64,000 nucleotides of DNA from Patescibacteria group bacterium (lineage in GTDB: Bacteria > Patescibacteriota > Minisyncoccia > RBG-13-40-8-A), in the NCBI GenBank assembly GCA_018897295.1, contig JAHILA010000014.1, positions 3,390 to 67,389 on the forward strand, written 5' to 3'. The position numbers were made by a program, and so were the translations under genes. How positions within the stretch are numbered: the stretch's first letter is position 1; each line of letters starts with the position of its first letter. The notes below the pieces were generated by a model, which saw nothing but the letters and a program-made list of their open reading frames with translations, was not told the origin of the DNA and made no database searches. Of this stretch, positions 4,579-61,898 are shown one piece after another.

Positions 4579-4583
4579 GTAAA

Positions 4584-5348: not shown

Positions 5349-5351
5349 TTT

Positions 5352-6415: not shown

Positions 6416-6416
6416 T

Positions 6417-26585: not shown

Positions 26586-26673
26586 TTATCCGAATCTACA
26601 AATTAATATGCGAATCTACAAATAATTCGTTGATTCGGATACATATTCGTATCATTCGAATAATATATTTATG
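26586..26673 (+). repeat. Copy C of the recurrent cis-element (forward), in a divergent promoter region
   Basis: It is near-identical to copy A and lies between the divergent DegT (-) and GxxExxY (+) genes. Confidence 0.85.
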
Positions 26674-31373: not shown

Positions 31374-31374
31374 T

Positions 31375-35031: not shown

Positions 35032-35037
35032 ATAAAA

Positions 35038-41285: not shown

Positions 41286-41321
41286 CATAATAAAGATTTT
41301 AAAATCAGGAATAAAATTATC

Positions 41322-42758: not shown

Positions 42759-42762
42759 AGAT

Positions 42763-43641: not shown

Positions 43642-43643
43642 CA

Positions 43644-45731: not shown

Positions 45732-46360
45732 TGCCTATCGATTATAAAAAAACTTCATCGCTTCTTTATCAAAGAGACCAATACCGAAAAGGTGGCATTG
45801 GTCGTTGGTATTGGGATTGGCGTGATAAAAAAATACTCGATTTTATTAAAAAAAAACATCAGGATATTTTGGATATCGGTTGCGGTGAAGGTATCACGCT
45901 TGAGAAATTAGTAAACAAATACAAAGATAAAAATATTTTAGGCGTTGATGTAATTGTTGAGAATGTTGATATCTGCAAAAAATACAACCTACCAGTCGTT
46001 CTGGGCGACGTTTATGGTTTAAAAATAAAAGAAGAATCGATTGACCTGTGTATCCTTTCAGAGGTGATTGAACATTTGGACAACGTAGGTTTGGCGCTCG
46101 AAAATATAAAGAGGATTTTGAGACCCGGCGGAGATTTAATCATCGTGTTTCCCAATGACACTTTTTTTAAAATAGCCAGAATACTTTTTTTAAAATTCAA
46201 AGAAGCATTTGCCGATTACGGCCATATTAATCATTTTTCGCCATGGAGTATCGAAAAGATTTTGAGTAGGGCGGGTTTCGAGATTATCAAAATCAAAAAT
46301 ACTCCGTTTGGGTTTTGGATTTTAAGTTTGCATTGCTTAGTCTTAGCGAGGAAAAAATGA
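45731..46360 (+). CDS. Class I SAM-dependent methyltransferase
   Basis: An ILDIGCGEGITLEKL motif is present. Start is probably the ATG overlapping the upstream stop (TAATG); the track ORF begins at 45707. Confidence 0.7.
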   Translation: MPIDYKKTSSLLYQRDQYRKGGIGRWYWDWRDKKILDFIKKKHQDILDIGCGEGITLEKLVNKYKDKNILGVDVIVENVDICKKYNLPVVLGDVYGLKIKEESIDLCILSEVIEHLDNVGLALENIKRILRPGGDLIIVFPNDTFFKIARILFLKFKEAFADYGHINHFSPWSIEKILSRAGFEIIKIKNTPFGFWILSLHCLVLARKK

Positions 46361-47736
46361 AAAAAGTTTTATTTATAAGGGCGATAGATCCCATAAGCGA
46401 AGTGGAAACGAGGTATCCGGGTTTAGGATTGGCTTATTTGGCAAGTGCTTTGCGTTCTCATTTTGGAGACGATTATTTTGATTTTCGGATAATAGAGAAT
46501 GGAAATGAGTCTGAAGTAAAAAGACAGATTTCTCAATTTGAGCCGAATATCGTGGGCATAAGTTCGGTTACGCAAAATTTTAATCTGGCAAAAGAATACG
46601 CGGTTTTCGCGCATAATAGAAATATCCCAGTTATAATGGGCGGGATTCATATTTCAATGTTGCCGCAGTCCTTGCCCAACGAAGCGGTTTTGGGCTGTAT
46701 TGGGGAAGGAGAACGGACGATCGTTGATCTTTTTTGTCTGTTCGAAAAAGCGGGCGAGTTTTCCAAAAAAGAATTAAAAAAAATAAAAGGAATCGTGTAT
46801 CGCGATGATGGCGGGCGACTGGTCGTGAATGAACCAGCGCCACTTATAAGTAATTTAGACGAGATAAAGATGTCGGCGCGCGATTTGCTTGAGATAAAAA
46901 AACATTCTTACATTTTTTCTTCGCGAGGATGTCCGTATAGATGCACTTTTTGCGCGTCATCTCGATTTTGGAATAAGGTTCGGTTGTTTTCGGCAGAATA
47001 TGTGGTTGAGGAAATTAAAGAGCTTTATGAACGATACGGCGTTAGGATGATTAGTTTTTTTGACGACCTTTTTATTATTAGTCCGCAGCGGTTGGAAGAA
47101 ATTGTCGTTTTGTTGGAGAAAGAGGGGTTGTTGGGGAAAATAAAATTTACCGGTTCGTGTCGGGCTAATCTGGTTAATAAAGGAGTAGCTAAAATCCTAA
47201 ATAAATTAGGTGTTGTCTCGGTCGGTCTTGGTTTGGAGTCGGGCAACGAGAGGGTGTTGCGTTATTTGAAAGGAGAGACTGCCTCGGTCGAATTCAATAA
47301 AAATGCCGTGGCTATACTAAAAAAATACGGGATTACGGTTAATGCTTCTTTTGTTATTGGTTCGCCCGATGAAACTGAAGAAGAAATGATGGAAACTTAT
47401 CGTTTTATAAAAAATAATCCTTTGGATTTGGTTGATGTTTATGTTTTGACACCACTGCCCGGTACGCCGATCTGGGAATATGCTAAAACCAGAAATTTGG
47501 TTTCGGATGATATGGATTGGTCGAAGTTTAACGTCAATTTTGAAGTCGGCCATAAAGAAGCGATTATTCTTTCAGAATTATATAATGCTGATCAGCTTTA
47601 CCGGATTTATAAAAGATTCAGGCGATTGCGTTTGTATTTAAATGCAAAAAACATTTGGCACAGTCCGTTTTTAATGGATTTACCTAAATATGTAATAAAG
47701 AAAGTTTTTGAGCGGCTAAAATCATTTTTAGGATAG
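46357..47736 (+). CDS. B12-binding-domain radical SAM enzyme
   Basis: It has a B12-binding N-domain and SSRGCPYRCTFCAS. Start is set at MKKVLFI (46357) overlapping the upstream stop; the track start 46315 is an upstream extension. Confidence 0.8.
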   Translation: MKKVLFIRAIDPISEVETRYPGLGLAYLASALRSHFGDDYFDFRIIENGNESEVKRQISQFEPNIVGISSVTQNFNLAKEYAVFAHNRNIPVIMGGIHISMLPQSLPNEAVLGCIGEGERTIVDLFCLFEKAGEFSKKELKKIKGIVYRDDGGRLVVNEPAPLISNLDEIKMSARDLLEIKKHSYIFSSRGCPYRCTFCASSRFWNKVRLFSAEYVVEEIKELYERYGVRMISFFDDLFIISPQRLEEIVVLLEKEGLLGKIKFTGSCRANLVNKGVAKILNKLGVVSVGLGLESGNERVLRYLKGETASVEFNKNAVAILKKYGITVNASFVIGSPDETEEEMMETYRFIKNNPLDLVDVYVLTPLPGTPIWEYAKTRNLVSDDMDWSKFNVNFEVGHKEAIILSELYNADQLYRIYKRFRRLRLYLNAKNIWHSPFLMDLPKYVIKKVFERLKSFLG

Positions 47737-47745
47737 TTTATCCAA

Positions 47746-49116
47746 TTAGATTTTTGTTAGGATTTTCAGCCCTCGTAGATTGTATAATAAATCCTTCAAA
47801 GATTTTATTGAACTTATCCTCTTCCAGATGTATTTCGGTCTGAAATAAAATGATCTATAAGCAGTTTTTAGATAGCGACGAAGCTTGTTAATTGAAACAT
47901 CGGATAAGCTGATAAGTGGTTTTGCGCTTAGAGCATAAAAACTTTTTGACCAATCGTTATTAATCTTTCTTGATTGTTTTGCTATTTCATAAAGTTCTGT
48001 TCCGGGGTAGGCGGTAGCAATAGCAAACTGGACATAGTCTAAATTTAATTCTTTACTAAATTTAATGGTTCGTTTAATTTCCTCCTCGCTTTCGGTGGGT
48101 ATGCCGAGTATAAAGTATCCCAACATTTGAATATTAACCCCTTTTGTTATTTCGACAGTATTTTTTATTTGTTCAATAGTAGTGCCTTTTTTTAGAAAAT
48201 TTAGGACTCTCTGGCTTCCAGATTCAATACCATAAGCAATTAAATAGCAGCCGGCTTTTTTCATTATTTTGAGTAGTTCTTTGTCGACTAAATTAACTCG
48301 GGTTTCGCACTTCCATTGAATTTTTATTTTATTCTCAATGAGTAGTTGGCAGATTTTTAATACTCGCTTCCTGTCTAAGGTAAATGTGTCGTCGTAAAAT
48401 TGGAGTTCTTTAATGCCATATTTATTTTTAAGTAATTCTATTTCCGAAATAATATTTTCTGGACTTCGGGGTCTAAATTTGGTACCAGTAATTGGCTTAG
48501 AGCAGTAAATGCAATGGTGAGGACATCCTCGACTAGTAAAAATAGTGGTGGCTGGTTTTTTAAGACTATTTAAATATTTAGAATATCTTTTTATGTTTAA
48601 TAATTCTCGGGCCGGGAAGGGTAATTCGTCTAAGTTTTCAATAAAATCAGCGTCAGGGGTATTGATAATTTGTTTATTTCTTCGGAAGGTTAACCCAGGC
48701 AGATTCTCGGGATTTTGTTTTTTTAAGATATATTCAACCAGTTTTGGAAATCTTATTTCTCCCTCTCCTCGAAAAACATAATCAATGCTTTCGGTTTTTT
48801 CTAGCACTTCATTTGGTTTAAGAGTGGCATGGGCTCCGCCTAAAATAATAATTTTTTCAGGGAATTTTTTTTTAATTATTTCTGCCAGGTAAAGAGCTTT
48901 TTTTATATTTGGCGTCACAGCAGTTAAGCCAATAATAGAAGCATTTTCTTTTTTTATAAATTTTAATAGTTTTTCTTCTGAAAATTTTTCTAACAAATAA
49001 TCAAGAATAATAACTCGATAATTTAATTTTTGGAGGGTAGCTGCCAAATAAGCCAGTCCCAGCGGTGGACAGACAAGAGACTTTTTACCTGGCGGATTAA
49101 TGAGAAGAATAGTCAT
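47746..49116 (-). CDS. B12-binding-domain radical SAM enzyme
   Basis: It has TSRGCPHHCIYCSK. It converges on the 46357 gene with only a 9-nt gap. Confidence 0.8.
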   Translation of the reverse strand: MTILLINPPGKKSLVCPPLGLAYLAATLQKLNYRVIILDYLLEKFSEEKLLKFIKKENASIIGLTAVTPNIKKALYLAEIIKKKFPEKIIILGGAHATLKPNEVLEKTESIDYVFRGEGEIRFPKLVEYILKKQNPENLPGLTFRRNKQIINTPDADFIENLDELPFPARELLNIKRYSKYLNSLKKPATTIFTSRGCPHHCIYCSKPITGTKFRPRSPENIISEIELLKNKYGIKELQFYDDTFTLDRKRVLKICQLLIENKIKIQWKCETRVNLVDKELLKIMKKAGCYLIAYGIESGSQRVLNFLKKGTTIEQIKNTVEITKGVNIQMLGYFILGIPTESEEEIKRTIKFSKELNLDYVQFAIATAYPGTELYEIAKQSRKINNDWSKSFYALSAKPLISLSDVSINKLRRYLKTAYRSFYFRPKYIWKRISSIKSLKDLLYNLRGLKILTKI

Positions 49117-49448
49117 TTTTTTCTTTTAGAACTATTTTTGAGAGCTATTTCTCTGATAATTTCGGTGATATTAGTTTCGATTTTCTGAAGCTTAATAAAT
49201 ATTCTAAATACAAGATAGAAGAGCAATACTATTGAGAAGTAAATAGCAACATCTACCCCTCTACCAACCCCCAATATTTTAGCAAAAAAAGCAGTAGTTT
49301 GAGGCAACAGAACAGCTATTAAAATTATTATCCAGAGTATTAACCAGAATAACAATCCCTTCAAAGAGATTTCCCCCCTTTTAAAATTTAAAATTATTTT
49401 TATTATAACAGATAAAGCAAAAACAATTATTAAAAATTGGATAAACAT
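49113..49448 (-). CDS. Small 3-TM membrane protein (DUF2304-like), the usual partner of Ppm1-like GT2 enzymes
   Basis: 111 aa and hydrophobic. It is directly downstream of, and overlapping, the GT2 gene. Confidence 0.45.
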   Translation of the reverse strand: MFIQFLIIVFALSVIIKIILNFKRGEISLKGLLFWLILWIIILIAVLLPQTTAFFAKILGVGRGVDVAIYFSIVLLFYLVFRIFIKLQKIETNITEIIREIALKNSSKRKK

Positions 49449-49452
49449 ATTT

Positions 49453-50154
49453 TTATTTAAATAATTTAAGAATTATTAGTTTAACAAAAGTTTTTAAGCC
49501 AAGAATAAAATTTTGTCCCTTAGAAAGTGAATAATCAGTATAAATAGCCTGAATAGGTACCTCCATTAATTTAAGATTGTGAACCTTAATTTCTTTGATT
49601 ATTTCTGAAGAAACCTCCATAGAGTTGGTTTTAAGATTTAAAAGTTGAGCTGTTTTTTTATTAAAGCATCTTAAACCCGACTGGCTATCAGTTGTCCAGA
49701 TTCCAAACAAGAAACGGGTAATTATATTAGCTATTCGGTTAGCTAATTTTCTTGAAAAGGGCATTTTGGAAGGGACCAATAATCGAGAGCCGATTATAAT
49801 ATCAGCCACTCCATTTTTTATAGGATTGACCATTTTTGGAATATCCTGAGCCTTATGCTGACCGTCGGCATCAAATGTTAAAAAAATATCACCATGTTCC
49901 AGTAACGCCCCTTTAATTCCTGTTGTTAGCGCCCCGCCCAAACCCCTGTTAATTATGTGATGATAAATACTAACTTCTTCTTTTTTTGCGGTTTCATAAG
50001 TTTTATCTGTTGAGCCATCGTCTACTACAATAATATTATCAACGTATTTTTTGACTTCTCGAATAACTTGACCAATGGTTTTTTCTTCATTATAAGCCGG
50101 GATTACTACAAATATTTTCTTGCTTTTTGATGATTTTTGATTTATAGTAATCAT
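49453..50154 (-). CDS. GT2 polyprenyl-phosphate glycosyltransferase (dolichyl-/undecaprenyl-phosphate mannose or glucose synthase-like)
   Basis: 233 aa with VVIPAYNEE...VVDDGSTD and FDADGQH motifs, typical of the DPM1/GtrB/ArnC family. Confidence 0.75.
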   Translation of the reverse strand: MITINQKSSKSKKIFVVIPAYNEEKTIGQVIREVKKYVDNIIVVDDGSTDKTYETAKKEEVSIYHHIINRGLGGALTTGIKGALLEHGDIFLTFDADGQHKAQDIPKMVNPIKNGVADIIIGSRLLVPSKMPFSRKLANRIANIITRFLFGIWTTDSQSGLRCFNKKTAQLLNLKTNSMEVSSEIIKEIKVHNLKLMEVPIQAIYTDYSLSKGQNFILGLKTFVKLIILKLFK

Positions 50155-50219
50155 ATAGGATTATATTTAAATCTTATTATAAGGATATAATATAAAGAGT
50201 TTTTTGTCTACCTTGTTTT

Positions 50220-51659
50220 ATGCAAACAATTAAAGAAAATAGATATTTTTTAATTATACTTCTTGGGTTAACTTTGCTAAGTGCCTTGCTTTGGAGTTGG
50301 GGTGATTTTGGTATTCAGCATAAATTGTTTGCCGACGGAACATATACAGATGATGGGGCTCTTTATGACAAGATTGGCAGAAATATAATTGAGAAAGGAA
50401 TATTTAGTGACGATGGTTCTACGAGGGAAAGTTTGATAGAGCCATTATATCCATTAATTATTGCCGGAGTCTATAAATTAGTAGGACCAAACCAGGATGC
50501 ATTAAGAATTTTAAATTTAATAGTTTTCTGTATTTCGATAATTTTGTTTTATTTTCTTGTCCGTTCTTTGTTTAGACATGAAAAAATTGCTAAAACCTCG
50601 GCAATTATTTTTGCTTTTTGTTATCCTTTGGCAAATGAAGTAGGGCAGATACATCGTGAAGTAATTTTTATTTTTCTAACTTTGCTTTTAGCGTTATTTA
50701 TTTATAAAAGTCAAGAAACTGGTAAAAAAAAATGGTTTTTTGGTTCTGGTATTATATTAGGCCTTGCAATTTTGCTTAACGGTGTTGCCCAATTATTACC
50801 ACTATTCATCTTGACCTGGTTTTTTTGTTTCTATAGAAAGCAGTTTAAAACATTGTTTTTTTGGAAGCGGGTTATTCTATTTATTTTAGGACTGTTAATT
50901 GTGGTTAGCCCTTGGATAATGCGGGATTTATTTAAGAAAGGGAAACTTGAATTTGTGTCGCCAAAAGGAGGTTTGATTTTTTCTCGGCGTGTCGAAATAA
51001 TGAATGGTATTAAAAATGATTTTTGGTCCCATTTGGTTGGCCAGACAGTAGGATACTATTTTGTTCAGAAATTTGATCCAGATGTTGATATTAAAAAATT
51101 GTGGAAACATCCTTTAACTATTGATTTGGCAGAAAAAATCGAAAATTCTAAAAAGGAATACGGAGATGTTGAAATCCAACTAATAAAGAATGGTCTAAAA
51201 GAAATTATTAGTAACCCTGTAATGTTGGTTGCCGCTTCATTATTAGATTTTATAAGATTAAATAGCCCTCTTTTACCGGCAAAGAATTTTTCTGTTAGAG
51301 AAGCATCTACTTTATTCGTTCAATATCGTTGGAATCACGTGCCAAATTATATTAAAACCTCATTTCTTATATTTGTTCGTTTAGTTTGGTTATTGTTTTT
51401 TGCTTTGGTTGTTTATGGTATCGTGAAATCTAAAAACAAATTGTCCGTTTTAGCTCCTATTTTATTGTTAATAATTTATTTTAATTTATTTTATAGCTTG
51501 ATTCATGGCATCCCGCGTTATGCCTATCCCATTTATCCTTTTTATATTATGTTTTTTGTGGTGGGGATTTTTGCTTTTTATTCAAAGTTTTTTCGCCGTG
51601 ATAGTCATCATACTAGTCAAGCCGAACTTAGCCAAGAGATGACTCAGGGGTCGAAATAG
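50220..51659 (+). CDS. GT-C fold glycosyltransferase, GT39/GT83-like (PMT / ArnT family)
   Basis: 479 aa and polytopic. The N-terminal region with a DDG/DE loop motif resembles PMT/ArnT. It is transcribed divergently from the GT2 gene. Confidence 0.55.
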   Translation: MQTIKENRYFLIILLGLTLLSALLWSWGDFGIQHKLFADGTYTDDGALYDKIGRNIIEKGIFSDDGSTRESLIEPLYPLIIAGVYKLVGPNQDALRILNLIVFCISIILFYFLVRSLFRHEKIAKTSAIIFAFCYPLANEVGQIHREVIFIFLTLLLALFIYKSQETGKKKWFFGSGIILGLAILLNGVAQLLPLFILTWFFCFYRKQFKTLFFWKRVILFILGLLIVVSPWIMRDLFKKGKLEFVSPKGGLIFSRRVEIMNGIKNDFWSHLVGQTVGYYFVQKFDPDVDIKKLWKHPLTIDLAEKIENSKKEYGDVEIQLIKNGLKEIISNPVMLVAASLLDFIRLNSPLLPAKNFSVREASTLFVQYRWNHVPNYIKTSFLIFVRLVWLLFFALVVYGIVKSKNKLSVLAPILLLIIYFNLFYSLIHGIPRYAYPIYPFYIMFFVVGIFAFYSKFFRRDSHHTSQAELSQEMTQGSK

Positions 51660-52451
51660 CCAACAGAATAGATAAGAAAGAATAAAATTCGTTTTATCAT
51701 TTTTACACTTAAAAACATAATTCAGTGTTTTTAGAAATATTTTCGGATTAGGGTCGAATTCAATCTTTTGTGTTTTGAAACCAGCTTTTTCCAGAAGTTG
51801 ATTTATTGTTTTGGGAGTAAAATGATAAAGATGGCGAGGGCAGTCAAGACCAAACCATTTATTTTTAAATATTTTTGCCGACAAACTGCGGAAATTTGGA
51901 CCGTAAATAATTATTTCTCCATTTGGCTTTAGAAGGTTTTTTAATTGTTGCAGAGTTGTAAGGGGATTATTGAGATGTTCCAAGCTATTATTCAGGTTTA
52001 TAATATCAAAATAATTAAATTTATAATTTGCGTCTTTAAGTTCTCCGCAAAAAATATTTAGTCCTTTCTCTATAGACTGTTTACAAGCATATTCATTTAT
52101 ATCCAAGCCATATAGTGCCCAATTGGGGTGGCTTTTTTTAATTTCTGATAATTGATTTCCGCTCCCGCAGCCAAAATCTAAAAAATGTAATCTACTTTGG
52201 TCTTCTTTATGGTTTACTCCTTTCTTATGTGAAGATGTGTTTATTTTTTTGGACTGATACGTTTTATAATCAGGAGGATAATATTTTTTTAATCCCTCGA
52301 GGGTGGGCTGGGGATTTAAATAGACCAGACCACAATTAAGGCATTTAACAATATTAAACTTAGTATCGTCTACCTTATGAAGCAGATCTTTGCCGGCAAA
52401 CAATTGTTTCGTTTCATCTTTATTACAAATAATGCATTTGATTTGATTCAT
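51582..52451 (-). CDS. Class I SAM-dependent methyltransferase with an N-terminal zinc ribbon
   Basis: It has CIICN...CLNCGLVYLNPQP followed by FLDFGCGSGNQL. Confidence 0.7.
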   Translation of the reverse strand: MNQIKCIICNKDETKQLFAGKDLLHKVDDTKFNIVKCLNCGLVYLNPQPTLEGLKKYYPPDYKTYQSKKINTSSHKKGVNHKEDQSRLHFLDFGCGSGNQLSEIKKSHPNWALYGLDINEYACKQSIEKGLNIFCGELKDANYKFNYFDIINLNNSLEHLNNPLTTLQQLKNLLKPNGEIIIYGPNFRSLSAKIFKNKWFGLDCPRHLYHFTPKTINQLLEKAGFKTQKIEFDPNPKIFLKTLNYVFKCKNDKTNFILSYLFCWLFRPLSHLLAKFGLTSMMTITAKKL

Positions 52452-52456
52452 ACAGA

Positions 52457-53707
52457 TTATTTTGTTTTTTTAAGCAGTGAAGAAGCTAAGCCTAAACCAA
52501 TAAATCTTGCAATCACTCTCGCAATAATTGCGCCCCAGAGGCCATAAAAATAGATGAATAAAAATAGAACAATTATTTGAATAATAGAGCTATAAATATT
52601 GAGCTGATATAGTTCTTTTTTTGCTGATATAGATTGCAATGCAGCAATAGGAAGCATTACGATTGTCGCGATTAAAGAAATAGCATAGATTTGAGAATAA
52701 GATATTGACTCAAGATATTGCGGGAAAAATATTTTGAAGACCAAAGGAGCGACGAGTATATAAATAATAGTTATAACAGATATTACTAATCCAAACTTCA
52801 ACATCTTTTTTAAAATACCCTGTTTAATTTCCTCTATTGTTCTTTGCGAGAATTTGGGCAGGGCTAAAAGATGGATGTTTTTGAATAATCCCTTTATTTG
52901 ATCTATGGGCACGACAGCAAATGAGTAAATTGCTAATTCAATGGCTCCCAAATAGTGAAAAATTAAAATTTTATCTATTTGGCTTGCTATTGCGTCAAAG
53001 ACCCCCATCAAACTCAAATGTTTGCCATAGGAAATTGTTTTTGGATCTTTTTTTTCGTTGGGTTGGAATTTTTTGAGAGTAATTTTTAAAAAAATAAGAC
53101 GAAGCAGCGTATTAGGGACAAAATAGGCAAAGATAACAAGAAAAATATTGTTGGTTAGAAAAAGCGTGACCATCATTATTGCTGCGGCGATGACTTGGGT
53201 AATGATATCGTATTTTGTAGAAAATTTAAAAAGTTTTCTGCCAGTCAACAAAGAACTATAAATAGCCAGAGAATCCATAAAGGGAAGGAAGGCTGCCGCA
53301 ACCAAAAAACATAAAGTTAAAGCAATATCACCATGAAAATAATAATAGCCGGCTAAAACAATACTGATTAATCCTCCGAATAACCCCCATTTAATTTTGG
53401 TTTTTAAGGCGGAAACAAAAGTACCTTCATAACCGCGGGCAACCGCTTGAATAACCGCGGTGTTTATACCAGAAAGAGTAAAGATAGTCAATAGACCTGC
53501 CAATGACAAAATATATTTATAAATACCGTAAATTTCTTTTGATAATAAATTAGCAAATGCGATTGTCAATAAAAAAGAGGCAATCGTAGAAACAATTTTC
53601 CCAAAAGTTAACCAAAAGCCACCTTCTACTAGATATACCATATCAGTTTGAGTGTATTTTTGACTCCAGCGTAGCAGATTGTAAATTTTTGATTTTATTT
53701 TCTGCAT
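52457..53707 (-). CDS. Polysaccharide biosynthesis flippase (Wzx-like, MOP superfamily)
   Basis: 416 aa with about 12 TM helices, in the typical Wzx size and position next to the initiating transferase. Confidence 0.65.
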   Translation of the reverse strand: MQKIKSKIYNLLRWSQKYTQTDMVYLVEGGFWLTFGKIVSTIASFLLTIAFANLLSKEIYGIYKYILSLAGLLTIFTLSGINTAVIQAVARGYEGTFVSALKTKIKWGLFGGLISIVLAGYYYFHGDIALTLCFLVAAAFLPFMDSLAIYSSLLTGRKLFKFSTKYDIITQVIAAAIMMVTLFLTNNIFLVIFAYFVPNTLLRLIFLKITLKKFQPNEKKDPKTISYGKHLSLMGVFDAIASQIDKILIFHYLGAIELAIYSFAVVPIDQIKGLFKNIHLLALPKFSQRTIEEIKQGILKKMLKFGLVISVITIIYILVAPLVFKIFFPQYLESISYSQIYAISLIATIVMLPIAALQSISAKKELYQLNIYSSIIQIIVLFLFIYFYGLWGAIIARVIARFIGLGLASSLLKKTK

Positions 53708-55077
53708 TATCTACCTCCTCCTTTAAGGACGATGTTAATTGTTTTAAGAACTATGCTTGAATCAAAGATGAAGGAACGGTTTTTTATATAATATAAATCG
53801 TATTGAACTTTCTCAAAATTATCTGCAACAGATGAACCATAGCCGTATTTTATCTGCGCCCAGCCAGAGAGTCCTGGCTTTATTAAGTATCTTTCCTGGT
53901 AGAAAGGGATGTGTGCTTTGAGTTCTTGGTGAAATTCCGGTCTTTCTGCCCGTGGTCCCACAAAACTCATTTCTCCTATAATAATGTTCCAAATTTGCGG
54001 TATCTCATCTAATCTTGTTTTTCTTAAAAATTTTCCGAATTTAGTGATTCTGGAATCTTTTTGTGTAGTCATTTTTGGTCCGTCTTTTTCCGCGTCTTTT
54101 ATCATTGAGCGGAATTTTACAATTTTAAATGGCCTGCCACCTTGTCCGACTCTTATTTGTGTATAGAATATTTTGCCTCGCGATTCCAGTTTTACGATAA
54201 TTGCAATTAGTGGCCAAAATGGCAAACTAATTACTAGAAGAAATAATCCGAAAATAAAATCAAATAATCTTTTAGCGACTTCATAAGGTTGTTTTTTCTC
54301 CTGGGATATATTTTCTAGAAACCAAACTTCATTAATTGCCGTAAGTGGAATTTTTTGCGTTATGTTTTCATAGAACTCGGGCAAATTTACAAAGTCAATT
54401 TTATATTTAATGCATTCAAAAAGATTTTGGATTAATTCCTGTGATTTATAAACCTCTGGCGTGACAATCGCTATGTTTACTCTTTCTTGTTGTAATGTTT
54501 CTCTTAAGTTCTTAAATCCTTGTGTTATTTTTATTTCGGGCAATTCGGTTCGGTCGACTTCTTCATGATTCTCAATAATTAATTTCAGTTTGTAGCCCAA
54601 TTGAGGATTTTTGATTATTTCTTTTGCCAACTCAATGGCTTGTGGATTGTAGCCGATAATCGCTATATTGGTTTTTAGTTTTAAAGATCCTGCTAATAAA
54701 TTAAATAAATATCTCCAGCCGTAGAATAAGAATACGAAAAAGACGATATTTAAAAATAGGTTTGTTTTTGGCGTGATTGAAGATATAATGAATCCCGGTA
54801 TGATGTAAAAAAATGCAATTGAAATTAATCCGCCAATAATTAATGCTCGGATTAGGGCCGAAGAAAAAACGATATTATTTTTGGCAATATCTATTTCGTA
54901 GAGATTGTGAATATAAAAAACAATTATCCAGACCAAATAAACAATTGAAAAGGGGATAAAGTGGGCTTGAAAAGTGCCAAAATCAAACTCTTTATAGCGG
55001 ACTATAAGAGCGATGGTCAAAGAAACGTATAAAATAACTAAATCTCCGATAAGAAGGATTAATTTCTTTGTTTTCAT
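53707..55077 (-). CDS. Polyprenyl-phosphate glycosyl-1-phosphate transferase (bacterial sugar transferase; WbaP/PglC-like initiating enzyme)
   Basis: The C-terminal domain has KRLFDFIFGLFLL...KFRSM...PQIWNII.GEMSFVGPRAERPEF, the bacterial sugar transferase signature. Confidence 0.8.
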   Translation of the reverse strand: MKTKKLILLIGDLVILYVSLTIALIVRYKEFDFGTFQAHFIPFSIVYLVWIIVFYIHNLYEIDIAKNNIVFSSALIRALIIGGLISIAFFYIIPGFIISSITPKTNLFLNIVFFVFLFYGWRYLFNLLAGSLKLKTNIAIIGYNPQAIELAKEIIKNPQLGYKLKLIIENHEEVDRTELPEIKITQGFKNLRETLQQERVNIAIVTPEVYKSQELIQNLFECIKYKIDFVNLPEFYENITQKIPLTAINEVWFLENISQEKKQPYEVAKRLFDFIFGLFLLVISLPFWPLIAIIVKLESRGKIFYTQIRVGQGGRPFKIVKFRSMIKDAEKDGPKMTTQKDSRITKFGKFLRKTRLDEIPQIWNIIIGEMSFVGPRAERPEFHQELKAHIPFYQERYLIKPGLSGWAQIKYGYGSSVADNFEKVQYDLYYIKNRSFIFDSSIVLKTINIVLKGGGR

Positions 55078-55119
55078 ATTGGCTTCATTCTATCTCAATT
55101 TATTTTTATTGACAATAGT

Positions 55120-55148
55120 TTGACACGAAATTTATGTAAACATATAAT
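55120..55148 (+). promoter_or_regulatory. Sigma70 promoter: TTGACA, 17 nt, TATAAT. The -10 element is 10 nt from the ATG, so the mRNA may be leaderless.
   Basis: The hexamers and spacing were read directly. The ATG at 55158 lies 9-10 nt after the -10 element. Confidence 0.55.
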
Positions 55149-55157
55149 AATTGTATT

Positions 55158-57392
55158 ATGGTTATTTCTGAAGCTTTTGCGAAAATACTCCGTTGGGGGG
55201 TTTTTATTTCTTTGTTTTTGCCGTTGGTAATTTTCTCTCAATATCTATCGCCGTTTCATTTCGGCAAGGTGATTATTTTTAGAATCCTTGTGGGAATAAT
55301 GGCGGTTTTTTATATTCCGTTAATCATTGTTGATAAGAGATATCGGCCAAAGTGGACAATGATTTTAATCAGTATTTCTGTTTTTGCTTTTCTGTATTTA
55401 TTCAGCGGCTTAGTAGGAAATAGTTTTTATTCCAGTTTTTGGGGGACGATTGAAAGAATGGGGGGAATTTTCAGTTTTTTGCATTATTTGGTCTATTTTC
55501 TAATTTTAATTAGTATTATTAAGAAAGAAGTTGACTGGGATAAAATTTTAAAAGTTTCGCTTTTTGTTGGTTTTCTTTCTATTCTTTTCGCTTATGGTCA
55601 GCGCCTGAAATTGGGCAATTTTTTCGTTGGCTGGCAGCATGGAGATAGGGTAATTGGCACCATTGGCAATCCTGCTCTTTTTGCCGGCTATCTTTTATTT
55701 ATTCTATATTTGGCAATTTTATTTCTCTCTAGAAAAATAACTCGGCCTGCTGAGAAAGGGTTTTTTGCTGCTATTCTTATTTTGGGCGTTCCGGTTTTAT
55801 TGATGACCGCAGTAAGAGGAGCTATTATAAGTTTTTTTGGCAGTCTTTTGCTTCTGGCATTGTTTTTTCTTTTTTTCCAGAAAAGCCGGAGAATAAAGAT
55901 TCTTTTATTGGTAGCAATTATTGTTTTCGTAATTTTTGGTACCATTATCTGGTTAGAGAAGAATAAAGATTGGGTTAAAAATAATAGTTTACTGCAGCGA
56001 ATCACTGATATTTCTTTTAAGAGTGACACTATCCAAACCAGATTATGGTCATGGGAAAGCGCAATCAATGGCTGGAAGGAAAAACCGATTTTCGGATGGG
56101 GTCCGGAAAATTTTACTTTTCTGCATATGAAATATTTTGATTCCCGACATTTTTCCGGCCTGGGGTCCGAAACAATTTGGGACAGGGCCCATAATATAAT
56201 TTTGGAAATGCTTTCAACCATGGGCATAGTTGGTCTTTTAAGTTATATTTTCATTTTTTTCAGCATCTTTTATATTCTGATTAAAAAATTTAAGCAAAAG
56301 CAAATCGAGAATTCTGATTTTGGCATAATTATAGCAATGCTTATTGCCTATATTGGACAGAATTTGTTTATCTTTGACACATTTGCTAATTATTTTTTAT
56401 TCTTTTTGATATTGGGATATATAAATAATCTTCATTTAAAAGAGGAGACCTATTCAATACCGACAAAAGAGCCATCTGTCTTTTTGGCTGCGATTTTATT
56501 GGTTTTTGTCTTAATATTGACATATCAAACCGGAATTAAACCGGCAAAAGCCAATTATGCCTGCACTAGAGCAATTGTAGCTGGCCAAAGGGGAGATGCG
56601 AATGAGGCTTTCCAGTATTACAAAAAAGCATTGAGCTATGATAATCCGCAGGTTAATTATGACATAACCCACAAATTAGCTACTTTTACCATACAGCTTA
56701 TTGAAGCACAGAGACAGAAGAATAAAACCATTGATGTAAATTTGGCGCATTACACAATTGAAGCAGTAAAAAAGAATATCGAAAGATTTTCCCTAGACAC
56801 AACGCCTTATCTTTATGTTGGAAGAATGTATATTCTTTTAATCGATGAGGAGGCGGATACAGCTGGTAAACTGGCAGAAGAATTCATCGGCAAAGCCCTG
56901 GATTTAAATAGAAAGAATCCAAGAATATGGTATGAACTTGGACAAGCGCAATTATCACTCGATAAATATAAAGAGGCCTATGATAGTTTCAAGGAAGCAT
57001 TAAACCTTAATCCGCAGGTAGCCATTTCTTACTGGTTTTTGGGTATGGCTGCTTATGAAAATGGCCAATACGATTCAAGTCATTACCAAGAAGCTGCTCA
57101 ACTTGTTGAAAAGGCGATAGTAATGGGATACAATTACAAAGGCAGTATAAATGATTTAATGCGTTTAGTTCATATTTATGACAAGGTCGGGAATTATAGT
57201 AAAATTGTAGAAGTTTACAAGTTGGCAATATTGAAACAGCCAAGCAATGCTCAACTGCATGCTTCTTTGGCTGCTGCATACGCTAAAATTGGAGATTACG
57301 AAAATGCTAAAAAAGAAGCGCTGAAATCAGCTGAAATTGATCCGAATTTTAAATCAGATGCCGAGAAATTCATTAATTCATTGCCGCGTTAA
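55158..57392 (+). CDS. O-antigen ligase-domain (Wzy_C) membrane protein fused to C-terminal TPR repeats. It may be an O-oligosaccharyltransferase or a ligase.
   Basis: It is polytopic with a WSWESAINGWKEKPIFGWGPENF / RAHNIILEMLSTMGIVG Wzy_C signature. The C-terminal 250 aa carry TPR-like repeats. Confidence 0.7.
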   Translation: MVISEAFAKILRWGVFISLFLPLVIFSQYLSPFHFGKVIIFRILVGIMAVFYIPLIIVDKRYRPKWTMILISISVFAFLYLFSGLVGNSFYSSFWGTIERMGGIFSFLHYLVYFLILISIIKKEVDWDKILKVSLFVGFLSILFAYGQRLKLGNFFVGWQHGDRVIGTIGNPALFAGYLLFILYLAILFLSRKITRPAEKGFFAAILILGVPVLLMTAVRGAIISFFGSLLLLALFFLFFQKSRRIKILLLVAIIVFVIFGTIIWLEKNKDWVKNNSLLQRITDISFKSDTIQTRLWSWESAINGWKEKPIFGWGPENFTFLHMKYFDSRHFSGLGSETIWDRAHNIILEMLSTMGIVGLLSYIFIFFSIFYILIKKFKQKQIENSDFGIIIAMLIAYIGQNLFIFDTFANYFLFFLILGYINNLHLKEETYSIPTKEPSVFLAAILLVFVLILTYQTGIKPAKANYACTRAIVAGQRGDANEAFQYYKKALSYDNPQVNYDITHKLATFTIQLIEAQRQKNKTIDVNLAHYTIEAVKKNIERFSLDTTPYLYVGRMYILLIDEEADTAGKLAEEFIGKALDLNRKNPRIWYELGQAQLSLDKYKEAYDSFKEALNLNPQVAISYWFLGMAAYENGQYDSSHYQEAAQLVEKAIVMGYNYKGSINDLMRLVHIYDKVGNYSKIVEVYKLAILKQPSNAQLHASLAAAYAKIGDYENAKKEALKSAEIDPNFKSDAEKFINSLPR

Positions 57393-57404: not shown

Positions 57405-57971
57405 ATGAATAAAAAAACATTAATTATTCTGGTAATATTATTTATTATATTAACAGGATTGGTTCTGGCTTATTTTTTTATTTTTAAAAAGACGCTGCCA
57501 CAGCAAAACGCACAAACCGAAATAAACAAAGACGGCTTCGTTATTGAATTACCAGATGGATGGGTGGAGGTAGAAGCTGTAATGGGTTCTTTTGCAACAG
57601 CAATGAATAATAAAGAACAGATTAACAATGCGGATGCTGCGAAAATAGGTTTTAGGAGTTATTACTCTGTTGTTTACGATACTTTTAATGAAAAAACCAA
57701 TAATGATTATCTGGAGAAAATAGAAACTTCTTTAAAGGGAAATTTTCCAGAAGTAAAAATATCAAAGGAGGAAGGCAGGAATATGGATGGCGAACCAATT
57801 TATTTTATGGAAACAGACATTATTCAGCAGGATATTGATTTTAAAGTTTTATTGGCTGTAAATATTAAGGATAAAGATGTCTGGATAATCTCGTTCAATA
57901 CGCTTGAGGAAAGCTGGGAAGGATACAAAAATCTATTTTATCAAATTGCGGGAAATTTCCAGATTAAGTAA
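57405..57971 (+). CDS. Hypothetical membrane-anchored extracytoplasmic protein
   Basis: It has an N-terminal TM segment. No motif was recognised. Confidence 0.4.
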   Translation: MNKKTLIILVILFIILTGLVLAYFFIFKKTLPQQNAQTEINKDGFVIELPDGWVEVEAVMGSFATAMNNKEQINNADAAKIGFRSYYSVVYDTFNEKTNNDYLEKIETSLKGNFPEVKISKEEGRNMDGEPIYFMETDIIQQDIDFKVLLAVNIKDKDVWIISFNTLEESWEGYKNLFYQIAGNFQIK

Positions 57972-57981: not shown

Positions 57982-58740
57982 ATGGAAGATACAAATAAAA
58001 GTAAAAAGATTAACTGGGCTATAATTGCGCCCGTGATTTTAGCTGTAGTTGTTGCGGCAATTTTCATCTATCTTGATTATAGGAAACCAGGAGATGACCC
58101 AAATTCACCGAATAATTCAACTTCAGAAGAATATAAGCCAAAGCCAGTTTCTCTCAAGGATAACCCAAGGCGTTCTGAAGTAATTACGGATTTCTCCAAA
58201 TATGGATGCGCAAGCCCGGCAACCATTGAGCCCACAATAACAAAAGAACCGGATAAAATATGGACAATACCAAAAGATGGCGGATCTAGTATAGTCAGTT
58301 TGGGCAGATATAAAATCAAAAATTCAGTCAATACGATTTTAGATATACGCAAGCTTTGGCTGTATTTTTTCAGCGACAAATTGAGCGTCAGAGAAGACAA
58401 GGTTTATGCTTTGGAAAAATCATATGTCTCTAAAATGACTTTAGTGGTGAATGGTTATGAGCAGGAAATAAAATTAGGGGGTACAGAATATATGTTGATA
58501 GAACTTTCTGATTATCCTTTAGGTGATATTTATCCCTATGACAGAGAAACGTTTTTGGAGTTTGAGGTTTTAATTGAATTAAAGTGCAATAATCTTCAGA
58601 ATGGAACTTGTCTAAGCAATGAAAATAAATCTTTGGAATTTTTGGACAGAGCTGATATTTCTCCAATGTTCAAGATTTTTGCTCTCGGATGTCAGGAATT
58701 TGATAAAGATATCACTATAGATGCTGAATTTTCTTATTAA
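57982..58740 (+). CDS. Hypothetical membrane-anchored extracytoplasmic protein
   Basis: It has an N-terminal TM segment and a Pro/Ser-rich linker. No motif was recognised. Confidence 0.4.
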   Translation: MEDTNKSKKINWAIIAPVILAVVVAAIFIYLDYRKPGDDPNSPNNSTSEEYKPKPVSLKDNPRRSEVITDFSKYGCASPATIEPTITKEPDKIWTIPKDGGSSIVSLGRYKIKNSVNTILDIRKLWLYFFSDKLSVREDKVYALEKSYVSKMTLVVNGYEQEIKLGGTEYMLIELSDYPLGDIYPYDRETFLEFEVLIELKCNNLQNGTCLSNENKSLEFLDRADISPMFKIFALGCQEFDKDITIDAEFSY

Positions 58741-59010: not shown

Positions 59011-60813
59011 ATGTTTTTTCCAAAATCTAATTCGATTCAGAAATATAAGAAATTTTTATCAATCCTGCTGGTTTCAGGCGGGATTTTTATTATTTGCAGT
59101 TGTTCTGTTTTTGCTGCTTTTGAAGTTGGCGACAGCAGGGAATTTTTTGTTGATTCATCTTTTGATTATGAAACAAGAACAAAGATAGCAGCTACATTAC
59201 AAAAGGTTTCTGCTAATGCTTATTTTTATGTTGAAGATCCATTTTGGCAGGAATTGTCTCTGGCCCAGCAAAGTTCTTTTCTTGACGGATTAGATGACAT
59301 TGCTGTTCAATTTAATGAGAAAACCTATCCTTCCTTAAGATATATTTTCGGCTCGGAATGGAATCCTGGAATTGATAACGATGAAAGAATTACAATTCTT
59401 CTCACGCAGTTAAAAAAGACAGCAGGAGGATATTTTAATGAAAGAGATGAAGTTGCCAACTTACAGGAACCTACTTCCAATAACAGAGAAATGATTTATA
59501 TCAATGTCAGCCAGGTTGGCACCAGTTTAGTTCACGGTTTGATTGCCCATGAATTGCAGCATATGATTAATTGGAATCAAAAACAAAGACTTAATAATGT
59601 TCAAGAAGATATTTGGCTTAATGAATTGAGAAGTGAATATGCTCCAACAATAGCTGGACTGGATAGCGATTACGTAGGAAGCAATTTAGAAAGGCGCGTT
59701 GAAGATTTTCTTTTCCAGCCATCAGATTCCCTGACCGAGTGGAAAGGCGACAGGTATGATTATCCATCAGTGAATCTTTTGGGCCATTATCTGGCTGAGC
59801 AGTTCGGCGAAGATATTTTTTCTTTAATGATAAAAAACAATAAAGTGGGAATCTACAGCATTGAACAGGCATTAAAAGAAAAAGGATATAGTTCTACTTT
59901 TTCTCAGATATTTAATAATTGGGTAATTGCTGATTATCTGAATGACAAATCAATCTATAGCGGAATATACGGCTACAAAAATCCGTATTTGAAAGGAAAT
60001 GTCCAGATTTCACCAATCACTTACAGCATCGTATCAGCAAGCGTAATTAATATCTCGCAGCAGGTAAAGGATTGGTCGCCCTATTGGTATCGTTTTATTA
60101 ATAAACAGGATGCAAGCACTATTGCTAAAGATTTGGAAATTGAGTTTGAAGGTTTTATGGGACAGGGGGATTTTAATGTTTATTACATCGTTGATTACAT
60201 AGACCAGCAGACAGTAGTTGGAAAATTAACATTAGAAAATCAAAGCGGAGTATTAAAAATACCTGATTTCAAAACAAGAGTTGATTCGGTTACGATTGCT
60301 ATTTCTAATCAATTTAAGAAAAGCGATTTTCAAAGCAATGAACCGACAAATCCTTTTATTCTTTCAGCAGTTACGACTCTCTTTGATGAAATAGTTGAGC
60401 CACCTGGAGAAGAATTGCCCAAGCCAGAGGATTATGGATTAAAAGAAGGGGATTTAATCAGAGCAGTTGGTGATTTTGATATTTTCATCATTAGCCAACA
60501 TGGCTATAAAAGATTATTCCTTAATCCTGTTATCTTTAATATGTATGGCCATTTGACTGGCGGATGGAAAGCAGTTAAAACCGTTAGTCCGGAAGTAAGA
60601 GATGTATTCAAGACATCGAATTATTACCGTTATGTTGATTCGCCCAAGGTTTATAATTTAGAGATTTCCGGCGAGGATACAGGAATTTTAAGTTGGTTAA
60701 ACATAACCGGCGAGAACTTTCTATCTCAAGGCGGAAAACCGGAATCAATATTTATAATTAACAAATCAGAATTGGATTGGTATCCAAAAGGAGAGGATAA
60801 AATGGGGTTGTGA
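59011..60813 (+). CDS. Secreted putative zinc metallopeptidase (HExxH) with the shared module at its C-terminus
   Basis: It has a signal peptide and HELQH within LVHGLIAHELQHMINW. The C-terminal 125 aa are about 75 % identical to the 23076 protein C-terminus. Confidence 0.55.
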   Translation: MFFPKSNSIQKYKKFLSILLVSGGIFIICSCSVFAAFEVGDSREFFVDSSFDYETRTKIAATLQKVSANAYFYVEDPFWQELSLAQQSSFLDGLDDIAVQFNEKTYPSLRYIFGSEWNPGIDNDERITILLTQLKKTAGGYFNERDEVANLQEPTSNNREMIYINVSQVGTSLVHGLIAHELQHMINWNQKQRLNNVQEDIWLNELRSEYAPTIAGLDSDYVGSNLERRVEDFLFQPSDSLTEWKGDRYDYPSVNLLGHYLAEQFGEDIFSLMIKNNKVGIYSIEQALKEKGYSSTFSQIFNNWVIADYLNDKSIYSGIYGYKNPYLKGNVQISPITYSIVSASVINISQQVKDWSPYWYRFINKQDASTIAKDLEIEFEGFMGQGDFNVYYIVDYIDQQTVVGKLTLENQSGVLKIPDFKTRVDSVTIAISNQFKKSDFQSNEPTNPFILSAVTTLFDEIVEPPGEELPKPEDYGLKEGDLIRAVGDFDIFIISQHGYKRLFLNPVIFNMYGHLTGGWKAVKTVSPEVRDVFKTSNYYRYVDSPKVYNLEISGEDTGILSWLNITGENFLSQGGKPESIFIINKSELDWYPKGEDKMGL

Positions 60814-60836: not shown

Positions 60837-61898
60837 ATGAAAAACAATAAACAATTTTTCGGAGTGTTCTTCAGTGTTTTGATTTGTGTGTTTGTATTTG
60901 GAGTGATTGTTTATGCCACAACAACAATCGGAGATAATATTTCCGCAGGTGGGACATTAAGTGGAACTAATTTTTCAACAAATGCCACTTATTACAACAC
61001 GTTCGTAGGTACGGGGATAGAAACAACAACTACGGGTAGTTGGAATACATTTGTTGGTTATCAGGCAGGATATCAGAACGATGATGGAGCGGCTGATCAG
61101 AATACGGCTATCGGTTATGACGCCTTTTATTTAAACAATACAGGACAACGCAACACCGCCGCAGGTACGTATGCTTTATCTAATAGTGTTTCAGGTGACT
61201 ATAATGTTGCGATTGGTAGTTATGCAATGGAACTGAATACAACCGGAGATTACAATGTGGCTGTTGGTGATTCGGCATTAGATTGGAATGAGACGGGTTC
61301 GTATAATGTAGCGATTGGTTGGTCAGCCATGTTAGGAGCCTGGCCTGCTTCTACAGCTAATACAGCTGTTGGATATCGAGCCGGGGACGGCAATAATAGT
61401 ACCGGATATTCATCTTCGAACAATTCAATTTTTGGATATAAAAGCGGATTTAATGTTCGAACAGGTTCAAAGAATATTCTTGTTGGCTATCAAGCAGGAG
61501 ACGCTTTAACCTATGGTTCTAATAATATTGTTATTGGATATGATATAGATACATTAAGTGCTACAGCAGATAATTATATGAATATCGGCGGTCTGATCTT
61601 CGGAGATCTATCTACTGCCAGCGCTAAATATCTTGGTATTCTTGATTCTTCTCCTGCTTATACTCTCTCTGTTGACGGCACTGCCTCTGTTTCCGATACT
61701 ATGTATGTAAAAGATATTTATTTTAGCGGAGTGGCATCTGTTTCAAGCAGCGGCATTCGGTTGGATGATGGAGTAATGATTACTACCGGGATTGCTTCGC
61801 CGAGCGGAGATTGCGGCACATCAGGAAGTTTATTTATAGATAAAGTTAATGCCGGATTATATATGTGTGGCACAGATGCAAGGTGGAATGTTAAATAA
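60837..61898 (+). CDS. Secreted Hep_Hag/tail-fibre-like repeat protein; paralogue of the 22034 gene
   Basis: The N-terminal about 65 aa and C-terminal about 60 aa are near-identical to the 22034 protein at both protein and DNA level. The central repeat region has diverged. Confidence 0.7.

Follow-up and report, generated by a model that had tools for sequence, protein, structure and literature searches.

A 64,000-nucleotide stretch of the Patescibacteria contig JAHILA010000014.1 (GCA_018897295.1), referred to here as the window and numbered from its first nucleotide, carries a gene for a Wzy_C protein with C-terminal tetratricopeptide repeats (Wzy_C-TPR), back to back with a gene for a large phosphoglycosyltransferase (PGT). 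These two genes form a fixed core across Parcubacteria that stands beside a variable glycan cassette, and the Wzy_C-TPR protein has the fold and key residues of the ligase WaaL, with its active site and its TPR domain both facing outward. The protein is probably a ligase or oligosaccharyltransferase (OTase) rather than a polymerase, and we lean slightly toward a pathway in which it transfers a lipid-linked glycan to surface proteins while an accessory module adds a side-branch. Such a pathway, from PGT through glycosyltransferases (GTs) and flippase to a Wzy_C transferase, follows the logic known from pgl of Neisseria and slg of Paenibacillus. Since each component belongs to a known family, we regard the system as an extension of known biology and not as a new mechanism; what is new is the fixed core, the outward TPR domain and a set of candidate acceptors.

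The type of enzyme was judged by marker domains, catalytic residues and fold. All 33 family members match Wzy_C, the window protein at 1.4e-21 with 77 bits, where the cut-off is 31.7. From 30 orthologues a confident AlphaFold2 model (pLDDT 86.7, pTM 0.81) was obtained, which matched WaaL in a Foldseek search (7tpg_B, TM-score 0.66) and has the WaaL fold, known for its 12 transmembrane (TM) helices and the large periplasmic loop that joins TM9 to TM10. In addition, WaaL was the sole match when a profile of the N-terminal domain was searched against PDB sequences (1.8e-5). The window protein is about 18% identical to WaaL (Cupriavidus metallidurans, 7TPG/7TPJ; E. coli K-12), from which it differs by an extra 13th TM helix and by its extracytoplasmic TPR domain. 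In an hhalign alignment that is weak overall (E 0.006), residues R215, R288 and H338 of WaaL, known as the essential residues of the E. coli K-12 enzyme, pair with R220, R295 and H345 of Wzy_C-TPR, and none of these three varies among 30 full-length or 33 N-domain sequences. Short loops rich in Lys and Arg (the N-terminus, L2-3, L4-5, L6-7, L8-9, L10-11 and L12-13) alternate with the loops that bear the invariant residues, so that by the positive-inside rule the active site faces outward. Because of the 13th helix, the TPR domain also lies outside the membrane on the active-site side, where it is presumed to be an acceptor- or partner-binding module.

The partner gene encodes a large PGT, a type in which an N-terminal TM bundle precedes the Bac_transf domain, and its full-length match scores above the curated NCBIfam cut-off (TIGR03025, residues 11-453, 6.4e-113, 378.3 bits against 295.55). 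Both genes lie in a block (49113-57392) that a preliminary description of this DNA had listed as a complete toolkit for the export and transfer of a lipid-linked glycan. Every gene in that list is real, with open reading frame boundaries in the window that equal the listed coordinates exactly and with strong Pfam matches, far beyond chance (Table 1); the one gene it left out encodes a methyltransferase. PGT, Wzx and the Wzy_C-type transferase do make a coherent set, as had been proposed, and the type IV pilus operon (2-7258) and Thr-rich secreted proteins that it placed elsewhere in the window are present as well. The Wzx/MOP flippase of the block belongs by its Polysacc_synt domain to a family of proteins with about 12 TM helices. 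Upstream of the block, an array of about 30 kb (18594-49116) holds GT4, GT2, methyltransferase, B12-radical-SAM, DegT, FemAB-like and deacetylase genes. The G+C content of the window is about 35%.

Wzy_C-TPR has more than 100 full-length database orthologues (41-96% identity). The GTDB species set yielded 80 loci, all in Patescibacteria (Paceibacterota/Parcubacteria, Portnoybacteria, Yanofskybacteria), and apart from two on very short contigs these cover approximately residues 1-744, so the fusion of Wzy_C and TPR domains is fixed. Neighbourhoods were compared by tblastn of the window proteins against 82 related loci (E <= 1e-5, at least 40% coverage), and neighbours were counted where each flank reached 3 kb or more, as it did in 54 loci. 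A large PGT gene was found within 3 kb of Wzy_C-TPR in 36 of the 54, either divergently upstream as in the window (13 loci) or immediately downstream (23 loci). In 34/54 loci a 600-aa HExxH protein is encoded no more than 7 kb away, and in 28/54 SecA no more than 10 kb away. A Wzx homologue was detected in 10/54, a count made by a search that may miss small or divergent genes such as those for Wzx and DUF2304; Wzx homologues also stand beside the PGT/Wzy_C-TPR pair in loci that do not have the DUF2304/GT-C trio described below.

Beyond the PGT, the adjacent genes differ wholly between genomes, as seen in Pfam-annotated neighbourhoods. The cassette in locus L003 encodes a nonulosonic-acid pathway (NeuB/CMP-sugar), that in L004 has B12-radical-SAM, methyltransferase, GT2 and deacetylase genes, and that in L005 combines Methyltransf_21 and GT2 with epimerase genes; between these three loci the PGT remains 70-80% identical and Wzy_C-TPR 55-62%. 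Overall, Wzy_C-TPR is 55-88% identical between genomes with unrelated adjacent glycan genes. A transferase that stays conserved while the glycan cassette at its side is exchanged points to a ligase or OTase with relaxed donor specificity, which is the opposite of what would be expected of a Wzy polymerase, since Wzy tracks the structure of the repeat unit.

The alternative that Wzy_C-TPR is a Wzy-type polymerase for a capsule or exopolysaccharide, with another enzyme elsewhere attaching or releasing the polymer, therefore appears improbable. It can draw on the membership of some Wzy polymerases in Pfam Wzy_C, on the classic trio of PGT, Wzx and Wzy_C in the block and on the fact that the cluster has no other polytopic polymerase candidate. 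However, the Wzy_C-TPR profile showed no similarity to E. coli WzyE (E 0.2), yet the WaaL catalytic residues align. Furthermore, neither Wzz/GNVR and LCP domains nor a Wzz/PCP or tyrosine-kinase gene was found in the window or in four Pfam-annotated neighbourhoods, and paralogues of Wzy_C-TPR occur in operons with a surface protein. The polymerase reading was rejected on the WzyE comparison and on the lack of Wzz and LCP domains in those scans. The suggestion in the preliminary description of a ligase or O-OTase, not Wzy, is thus supported by the WaaL fold and residues, by conservation beside variable glycan genes, by the lack of Wzz nearby and by the result with WzyE.

The acceptor is less easily assigned, and a protein acceptor appears to have about an even chance. 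In a neighbour-joining tree of the N-domain, the 16 loci without PGT mostly form one paralogue clade, and several genomes have both the PGT-linked and the PGT-less type of Wzy_C-TPR. The operon of the PGT-less clade comprises, in this order, genes for a surface protein (about 1224 aa), a protein of 183 aa, a TPR protein, a GT-C with TMTC_DUF1736 and TPR domains, a beta-propeller protein, Wzy_C-TPR, two GT4 and a GT2. It is complete in four loci (L019, L023, L024, L064) and partial in eight (L031, L034, L036, L038, L041, L078, L084, L085), and looks like a dedicated surface-protein glycosylation operon. The window itself encodes a Ser/Thr-rich secreted surface protein of 1213 aa, whose full-length homologues (30-34% identity) are found just upstream of Wzy_C-TPR paralogues in L019, L023, L024, L040 and L064, with 32% identity over 1191 aa to the L064 protein. 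In L040, another paralogue directly follows the 1160-aa homologue of this surface protein, itself preceded by a DUF5667 gene. The window shows the same opening, with genes for an extracytoplasmic function sigma factor, DUF5667 and the 1213-aa protein, followed by the glycan cluster with PGT and Wzy_C-TPR at its far end. By analogy, the 1213-aa surface protein would be a better candidate acceptor than the pilin of the window. En-bloc transfer to Ser/Thr-rich surface proteins, as put forward in the preliminary description, is plausible, and the paralogue operons with a homologue of the 1213-aa protein strengthen it.

Surface-protein O-glycosylation is favoured because of these operons, which argue through guilt by association, and because of the precedent of the surface-layer (S-layer) O-OTases WsaB and WsfB. 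These enzymes carry Wzy_C and work with WbaP-like initiating enzymes, and a C-terminal TPR motif is present in WsfB and PglL (PMC2943079). WsfB of Paenibacillus alvei resembles the window protein in its monoderm host and in joining a Wzy_C enzyme to a C-terminal TPR, and WsaB of Geobacillus stearothermophilus is a Wzy_C enzyme with a separate TPR protein, WsaA, adjoining it (PMC2943079). In both systems WbaP-type galactose-1-phosphate transferases, WsfP and WsaP, start the glycan on polyprenyl phosphate, and the glycan is transferred en bloc to the surface protein (PMC2943079). Compared by description and not by sequence, the window has the same architecture of a Wzy_C enzyme with TPR and a WbaP-like PGT in one locus. 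In contrast, Geobacillus exports its glycan through an ABC transporter and not through Wzx, the S-layer gene lies beside or near the slg cluster whereas the candidate acceptor of the window is 37 kb from the transferase, and the Parcubacteria enzyme has a multi-repeat TPR of about 280 aa and a conserved chromosomal position beside SecA.

Several points weigh against transfer to surface proteins. The surface-protein operons come from paralogues (the PGT-less clade and L040) and not from the PGT-linked clade to which the window gene belongs, and in the window about 37 kb separate the candidate acceptor gene from Wzy_C-TPR. The nearness of SecA, SecDF and the HExxH protease may be plain synteny of small genomes, for which reason these three are treated as context and not as functional partners, and tblastn has the limits given above. 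PglL_A (PF15864) and Wzy_C_2 (PF11846), the domains that mark PglL homologues, were not found at E <= 1 in the 33 family members or at E <= 0.01 in the full window protein. Fold and residues do not indicate a protein acceptor, because WaaL-type enzymes with the same residues ligate glycan to lipid A-core.

These points bear on a reading in which Wzy_C-TPR, as a monoderm analogue of WaaL, ligates the glycan to a non-protein acceptor such as a glycolipid (lipoglycan), peptidoglycan or another wall polymer, and the TPR domain is a scaffold for polysaccharide handling or wall contact, as in PgaA, BcsC and PelB. The only solved structural and sequence relative, WaaL, is a lipid-directed ligase whose catalytic residues are kept, and PglL marker domains are not found. 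A module common to four secreted proteins of the window, replaced by PG_binding_1 in some orthologues, also suggests that these proteins bind wall polymer rather than carry it. We nevertheless consider a non-protein acceptor rather unlikely, as a single hypothesis and together with the scaffold role for the TPR. Patescibacteria are described as devoid of lipid A and lipopolysaccharide (LPS); the host, unlike those of WaaL, has no known lipid A-core acceptor, and no LPS genes were found in the 64-kb window. Wall attachment in monoderms normally proceeds through LCP phosphotransferases and not Wzy_C enzymes. The window enzyme is conserved in a pair with PGT, not with core-oligosaccharide genes, and the operons of its paralogues also encode a giant surface protein together with a TMTC-like protein. 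Finally, the characterised monoderm Wzy_C enzymes, WsaB and WsfB, are protein O-OTases (PMC2943079).

The preliminary description had also named pilins as possible targets, which would make Wzy_C-TPR a pilin O-OTase of the PilO/TfpO or PglL kind acting on the type IV pilin encoded at 4049-4504. A complete type IV pilus operon does lie within the same 64-kb window, and PglL (Neisseria) and PilO/TfpO (Pseudomonas) resemble Wzy_C-TPR in being Wzy_C enzymes that transfer glycan from undecaprenyl diphosphate with relaxed glycan specificity. The pgl system further shares the logic of PGT, GTs, flippase and OTase, and a C-terminal TPR motif is reported for PglL (PMC2943079). The membership of PilO and PglL among the Wzy_C enzymes is likewise established (PMC2943079). 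The TPR domain is similar to the pilus-biogenesis TPR proteins PilW and PilF, and equally to many other TPR proteins. However, no homologue of pilin, PilB or PilD was found by tblastn within 10 kb of Wzy_C-TPR in any of the 54 loci, or around the 82 related loci, whereas TfpO genes lie directly beside pilA. About 48 kb of the window, including unrelated genes for ClpB and a sigma factor, separate its pilus operon from the Wzy_C-TPR gene (start at 55158), and no Ser/Thr-rich tail or segment was seen in the pilin sequence. PglL and PilO also differ from the family analysed here in that their host is not a monoderm and that PglL_A and Wzy_C_2 are found in 0/33 members. The pilin link was rejected on the lack of pilin, PilB and PilD neighbours and of a Ser/Thr-rich tail, and a role of Wzy_C-TPR in pilin glycosylation is very unlikely.

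With surface proteins as the slightly favoured acceptors, the block would be the membrane end of a Wzx-dependent pathway for a heteroglycan linked to polyprenyl diphosphate in a monoderm Parcubacteria cell. Judging from its family membership, the PGT would load the first sugar-1-phosphate onto polyprenyl phosphate, and elongation and tailoring of the glycan would follow at the cytoplasmic face through the GT4, GT2, methyltransferase and radical-SAM enzymes of the upstream array. Wzx, from its family and its co-occurrence with the core pair, would then flip the glycan. On the outer face of the membrane, Wzy_C-TPR would pass the finished glycan en bloc to a nucleophile, a chemistry suggested by its computed fold, residues and topology. 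The acceptors would most likely be Ser/Thr (or Tyr) residues of secreted, wall-associated proteins such as those encoded at 14750-18391 and 23076-24368, and Wzy_C-TPR would be an O-OTase of the WsfB/PglL kind whose TPR domain holds the protein substrate. As a side module, a DUF2304-activated GT2 would make a polyprenyl-monophosphate sugar, probably an N-acetylhexosamine (HexNAc), to be flipped by Wzx or by an ArnF-like protein (41322), and the GT-C would add it outside the membrane as a single-sugar side-branch, most likely to the glycan.

This GT2, DUF2304 and GT-C trio had been counted in the preliminary description as part of the same toolkit. It is rather probably an accessory three-component module for a glycan side-branch, because PMT_2 GT-C and DUF2304 homologues were found in 0/54 loci by tblastn and the trio stands beside Wzy_C-TPR in one other genome only. 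In that genome (locus L088, where the GT-C relative is 79% identical) the whole block from DUF2304 to SecA is repeated beside a different upstream cassette, with the GT-C gene divergently adjacent to GT2/DUF2304 and the order of GT-C and methyltransferase genes as in the window. The GT-C and methyltransferase genes of the window overlap convergently by 78 nt (51582-51659), and the overlapped GT-C tail is kept in a 79%-identical orthologue (P0122).

The GT2 is a short soluble enzyme, putatively of the polyprenyl-phosphate HexNAc synthase class, and the DUF2304 gene of its operon begins 4 nt after it. In NCBIfam it matches PpgS best (1.7e-51), at 174.9 bits under the equivalog cut-off of 370; AglJ follows, with ArnC far behind. 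Among characterised systems, the DUF2304 protein GacJ forms a complex with and stimulates GacI, a synthase of undecaprenyl-phosphate N-acetylglucosamine, and the DUF2304 protein Rv3632 stimulates PpgS, the polyprenyl-phosphate N-acetylgalactosamine (GalNAc) synthase of Mycobacterium tuberculosis (bioRxiv 10.1101/180810). GacL is a GT-C that uses the GacI product, the Wzx-family protein GacK is the proposed flippase, and in both the Gac and PpgS systems the GT-C puts HexNAc on a wall polysaccharide (bioRxiv 10.1101/180810). The window shares with Gac (Streptococcus pyogenes) and PpgS/Rv3632/Rv3779 (M. tuberculosis) a short GT2 without TM segments, an adjacent DUF2304 gene and a polytopic GT-C, all within a wall-glycan cluster and with a Wzx-family protein nearby; it differs in the PMT_2/ArnT-like nature of its GT-C and in the sub-threshold PpgS match. 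By analogy the DUF2304 protein is predicted to be a GacJ/Rv3632-type activator of the adjacent GT2, and from its sequence the GT2 is predicted to be a polyprenyl-phosphate HexNAc-type sugar synthase of the GacI/PpgS class.

The GT-C has only ten detectable relatives, which always lie inside sugar-nucleotide and GT clusters. Its invariant residues are D45, Y49, D50 and E74-P-x-Y-P78. In Pfam it matches PF13231 and not PF02366, the domain that defines GT39, and in NCBIfam it has weak matches to ArnT and LA_3751; a PDB sequence search gave no relevant match. Foldseek with a moderate AlphaFold2 model (pLDDT 71) placed ArnT first (5f15, 3.6e-5), followed by STT3, AglB and PglB, with Pmt4 and Pmt1-2 at 0.03-0.05; at this pLDDT and with TM-scores of 0.3-0.5, the ranking of ArnT over Pmt is weak evidence. 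The GT-C is predicted to move one sugar from a polyprenyl-phosphate sugar to an extracytoplasmic acceptor.

The preliminary description had called these enzymes Ppm1-like and GT39 and read them through actinobacterial protein O-mannosylation. In such a Ppm1/Pmt-type system, the trio would place single sugars on Ser/Thr of secreted proteins, and the general likeness is clear: in Ppm1 and Pmt, too, a GT2 polyprenyl-phosphate sugar synthase feeds a GT-C acting outside the membrane. NCBI names the GT-C a 'glycosyltransferase family 39 protein' and its relatives at 33-36% identity carry precomputed PF02366 matches, a point that also speaks against the side-branch module, as does the sub-threshold PpgS score. 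Pmt structures are among the Foldseek matches, TMTC-like GT-C+TPR genes stand beside surface proteins in related genomes, and Thr-rich secreted proteins are encoded in the window. Neither label suits the domain matches, however. The window GT-C has PF13231 only and ArnT as its closest structural and NCBIfam relative, the best match of the GT2 is the GalNAc-P-polyprenol synthase PpgS and not a mannose synthase, and the GT-C relatives all occur in polysaccharide-type clusters of sugar-nucleotide and GT genes. Both characterised DUF2304 partners, GacJ and Rv3632, serve the decoration of wall polysaccharides, and Ppm1 is not known to have a DUF2304 partner. Protein O-glycosylation by the trio is therefore unlikely.

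A second flippase candidate for the side-branch module is a small EamA/ArnF-like membrane protein (41322-41738), whose gene lies directly upstream of a gene for a 339-aa GT2 (41739-42758). ArnF is a subunit of the flippase for undecaprenyl-phosphate 4-amino-4-deoxy-L-arabinose, and on its sub-threshold matches the window protein is a possible flippase of polyprenyl-phosphate sugar serving the GT-C module.

The Patescibacteria, or candidate phyla radiation (CPR), are ultra-small epibionts, for the most part uncultured, and it is their surface that determines attachment to a host. To our knowledge nothing is known experimentally of CPR surface glycoconjugates, and a literature search on CPR/Patescibacteria for glycosylation, O-antigen ligase, oligosaccharyltransferase and B12-radical-SAM glycan clusters returned nothing specific. 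The two-gene core of PGT and WaaL-fold transferase with outward TPR, beside a swappable cassette and with named candidate acceptors, provides a testable hypothesis of protein glycosylation. More speculatively, the Wzy_C-TPR family could be a general protein O-OTase of Parcubacteria/Patescibacteria, encoded with PGT at a fixed locus by the Sec machinery, with a TPR domain that would capture Ser/Thr-rich, wall-anchored, S-layer-like proteins and decorate them with strain-variable, heavily methylated glycans, and with a second paralogue dedicated to the giant surface protein together with a TMTC-like GT-C; we hold this to be possible, short of probable. If true, CPR would thereby gain a first defined system for protein glycosylation and a first identified surface glycoprotein. 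If the relaxed glycan specificity implied by its conservation holds, Wzy_C-TPR could also serve as an O-OTase for glycoengineering.

Table 1. Features of the window discussed in the text, with positions, strands and the matches on which their assignment is based.
Feature	Position	Strand	Basis or remark
Ser/Thr-rich secreted surface protein, 1213 aa, candidate acceptor	14750-18391	+	22.5% Ser+Thr; directly before the glycan cluster
Secreted protein, 430 aa, second candidate acceptor	23076-24368	+	Thr/Ser/Gly-rich linker; 26.5% Ser+Thr
Small EamA/ArnF-like membrane protein	41322-41738	+	PF00892/TMEM234 ~3e-5, below cut-offs; only NCBIfam match ArnF, 1.4e-6, below cut-off
DUF2304 small membrane protein, 111 aa	49113-49448	-	PF10066, 9.7e-24
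Short GT2, 233 aa, no TM segment	49453-50154	-	PF00535, 3.6e-28
GT-C polytopic glycosyltransferase, 479 aa, PMT_2	50220-51659	+	PF13231, 1.6e-15
SAM-dependent methyltransferase, 289 aa, between GT-C and Wzx genes	51582-52451	-	PF13489, 6.8e-21
Wzx/MOP-family flippase, 416 aa	52457-53707	-	PF01943 (Polysacc_synt), 1.7e-19; PF13440, 4.6e-10
Large WbaP/WcaJ-type PGT, 456 aa	53707-55077	-	PF02397 (Bac_transf), 1.1e-65; TIGR03025
Promoter-like site for PGT	55115-55087	-	10/12; back to back with the Wzy_C-TPR site
Promoter-like site for Wzy_C-TPR	55120-55148	+	Perfect TTGACA-17-TATAAT; -10 ends 9 nt before the ATG; 80-bp divergent intergenic region
Wzy_C-TPR protein, 744 aa	55158-57392	+	PF04932 (Wzy_C), 1.4e-21; several TPR families
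Membrane domain of Wzy_C-TPR, residues 1-462	55158-56543	+	13 TM helices; WaaL fold
R220, R295, H345 on extracytoplasmic loops	55815-55817, 56040-56042, 56190-56192	+	
C-terminal TPR domain, ~280 aa, predicted extracytoplasmic	56544-57392	+	TPR Pfam matches; helical repeats, pLDDT >90
Secreted HExxH metalloprotease-like protein, 600 aa	59011-60813	+	C-terminal wall-anchor-like module; then SecA, SecDF

The divergent intergenic region between PGT and Wzy_C-TPR holds two promoter-like sites, and the perfect 12/12 site is kept in 8 of the 10 related loci whose intergenic region is similar in length (about 67-87 bp). Its conservation and its position just before the start codon suggest that the Wzy_C-TPR mRNA is leaderless or nearly so. 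A scan for such sites was not enriched overall in the window (63 sites against 50 +/- 8 in shuffles), and so only this conserved perfect site was taken as meaningful. Downstream of Wzy_C-TPR follow genes for a membrane-anchored PsbP-like protein of 188 aa (57405-57971, 1.4e-7) and for a 252-aa membrane-anchored protein without Pfam matches (57982-58740), both retained in this position in just 3/54 loci. The HExxH protein encoded next shows homology over its N-terminal 300 aa to the neutral metalloprotease 7bb8 (2.5e-16 in a PDB profile search), and its HExxH is conserved.

The upstream array includes six B12-binding radical-SAM genes (starting at 29937, 33607, 36784, 39804, 46315 and, on the minus strand, 47746), a radical-SAM/SPASM-methyltransferase fusion (43644-45731) and no fewer than six SAM methyltransferases interspersed with GT4 genes in 29937-49116, a capacity for C/O-methylation that is unusually dense for a glycan cluster. 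B12-radical-SAM genes stand beside the PGT in 10/54 related loci. In the middle of the cluster, between DegT aminotransferase and GT4 genes, a PD-(D/E)XK_3 nuclease-family gene (26671-27069, 1e-22) may be a selfish insertion.

Four secreted proteins of the window share a module of about 120 aa (14909-15214, 18681-19031, 23967-24350 and 60415-60798) with the motif 'KPEDYGLKEGDLIRA..GDFDIFII..GYKRLFLNP..F..YGHL'. The 1213-aa protein and a beta-helix protein carry it at the N-terminus, the 430-aa and HExxH 600-aa proteins at the C-terminus. As PG_binding_1 takes its place in 4/29 orthologues of the HExxH protein, the module probably serves as an anchor that binds the cell wall or a glycan and is typical of surface proteins in Parcubacteria. 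Paralogous surface-protein genes (22034-23032 and 60837-61898) flank the glycan cluster on either side; their products of 332 and 353 aa are 65% identical and have near-identical signal peptides, with 83% DNA identity over 309 nt. The genes next to this pair, for the 430-aa and HExxH proteins, encode C-terminal modules that are 76% identical to each other. Such bracketing repeats could mediate recombination or exchange of the glycan cassette.

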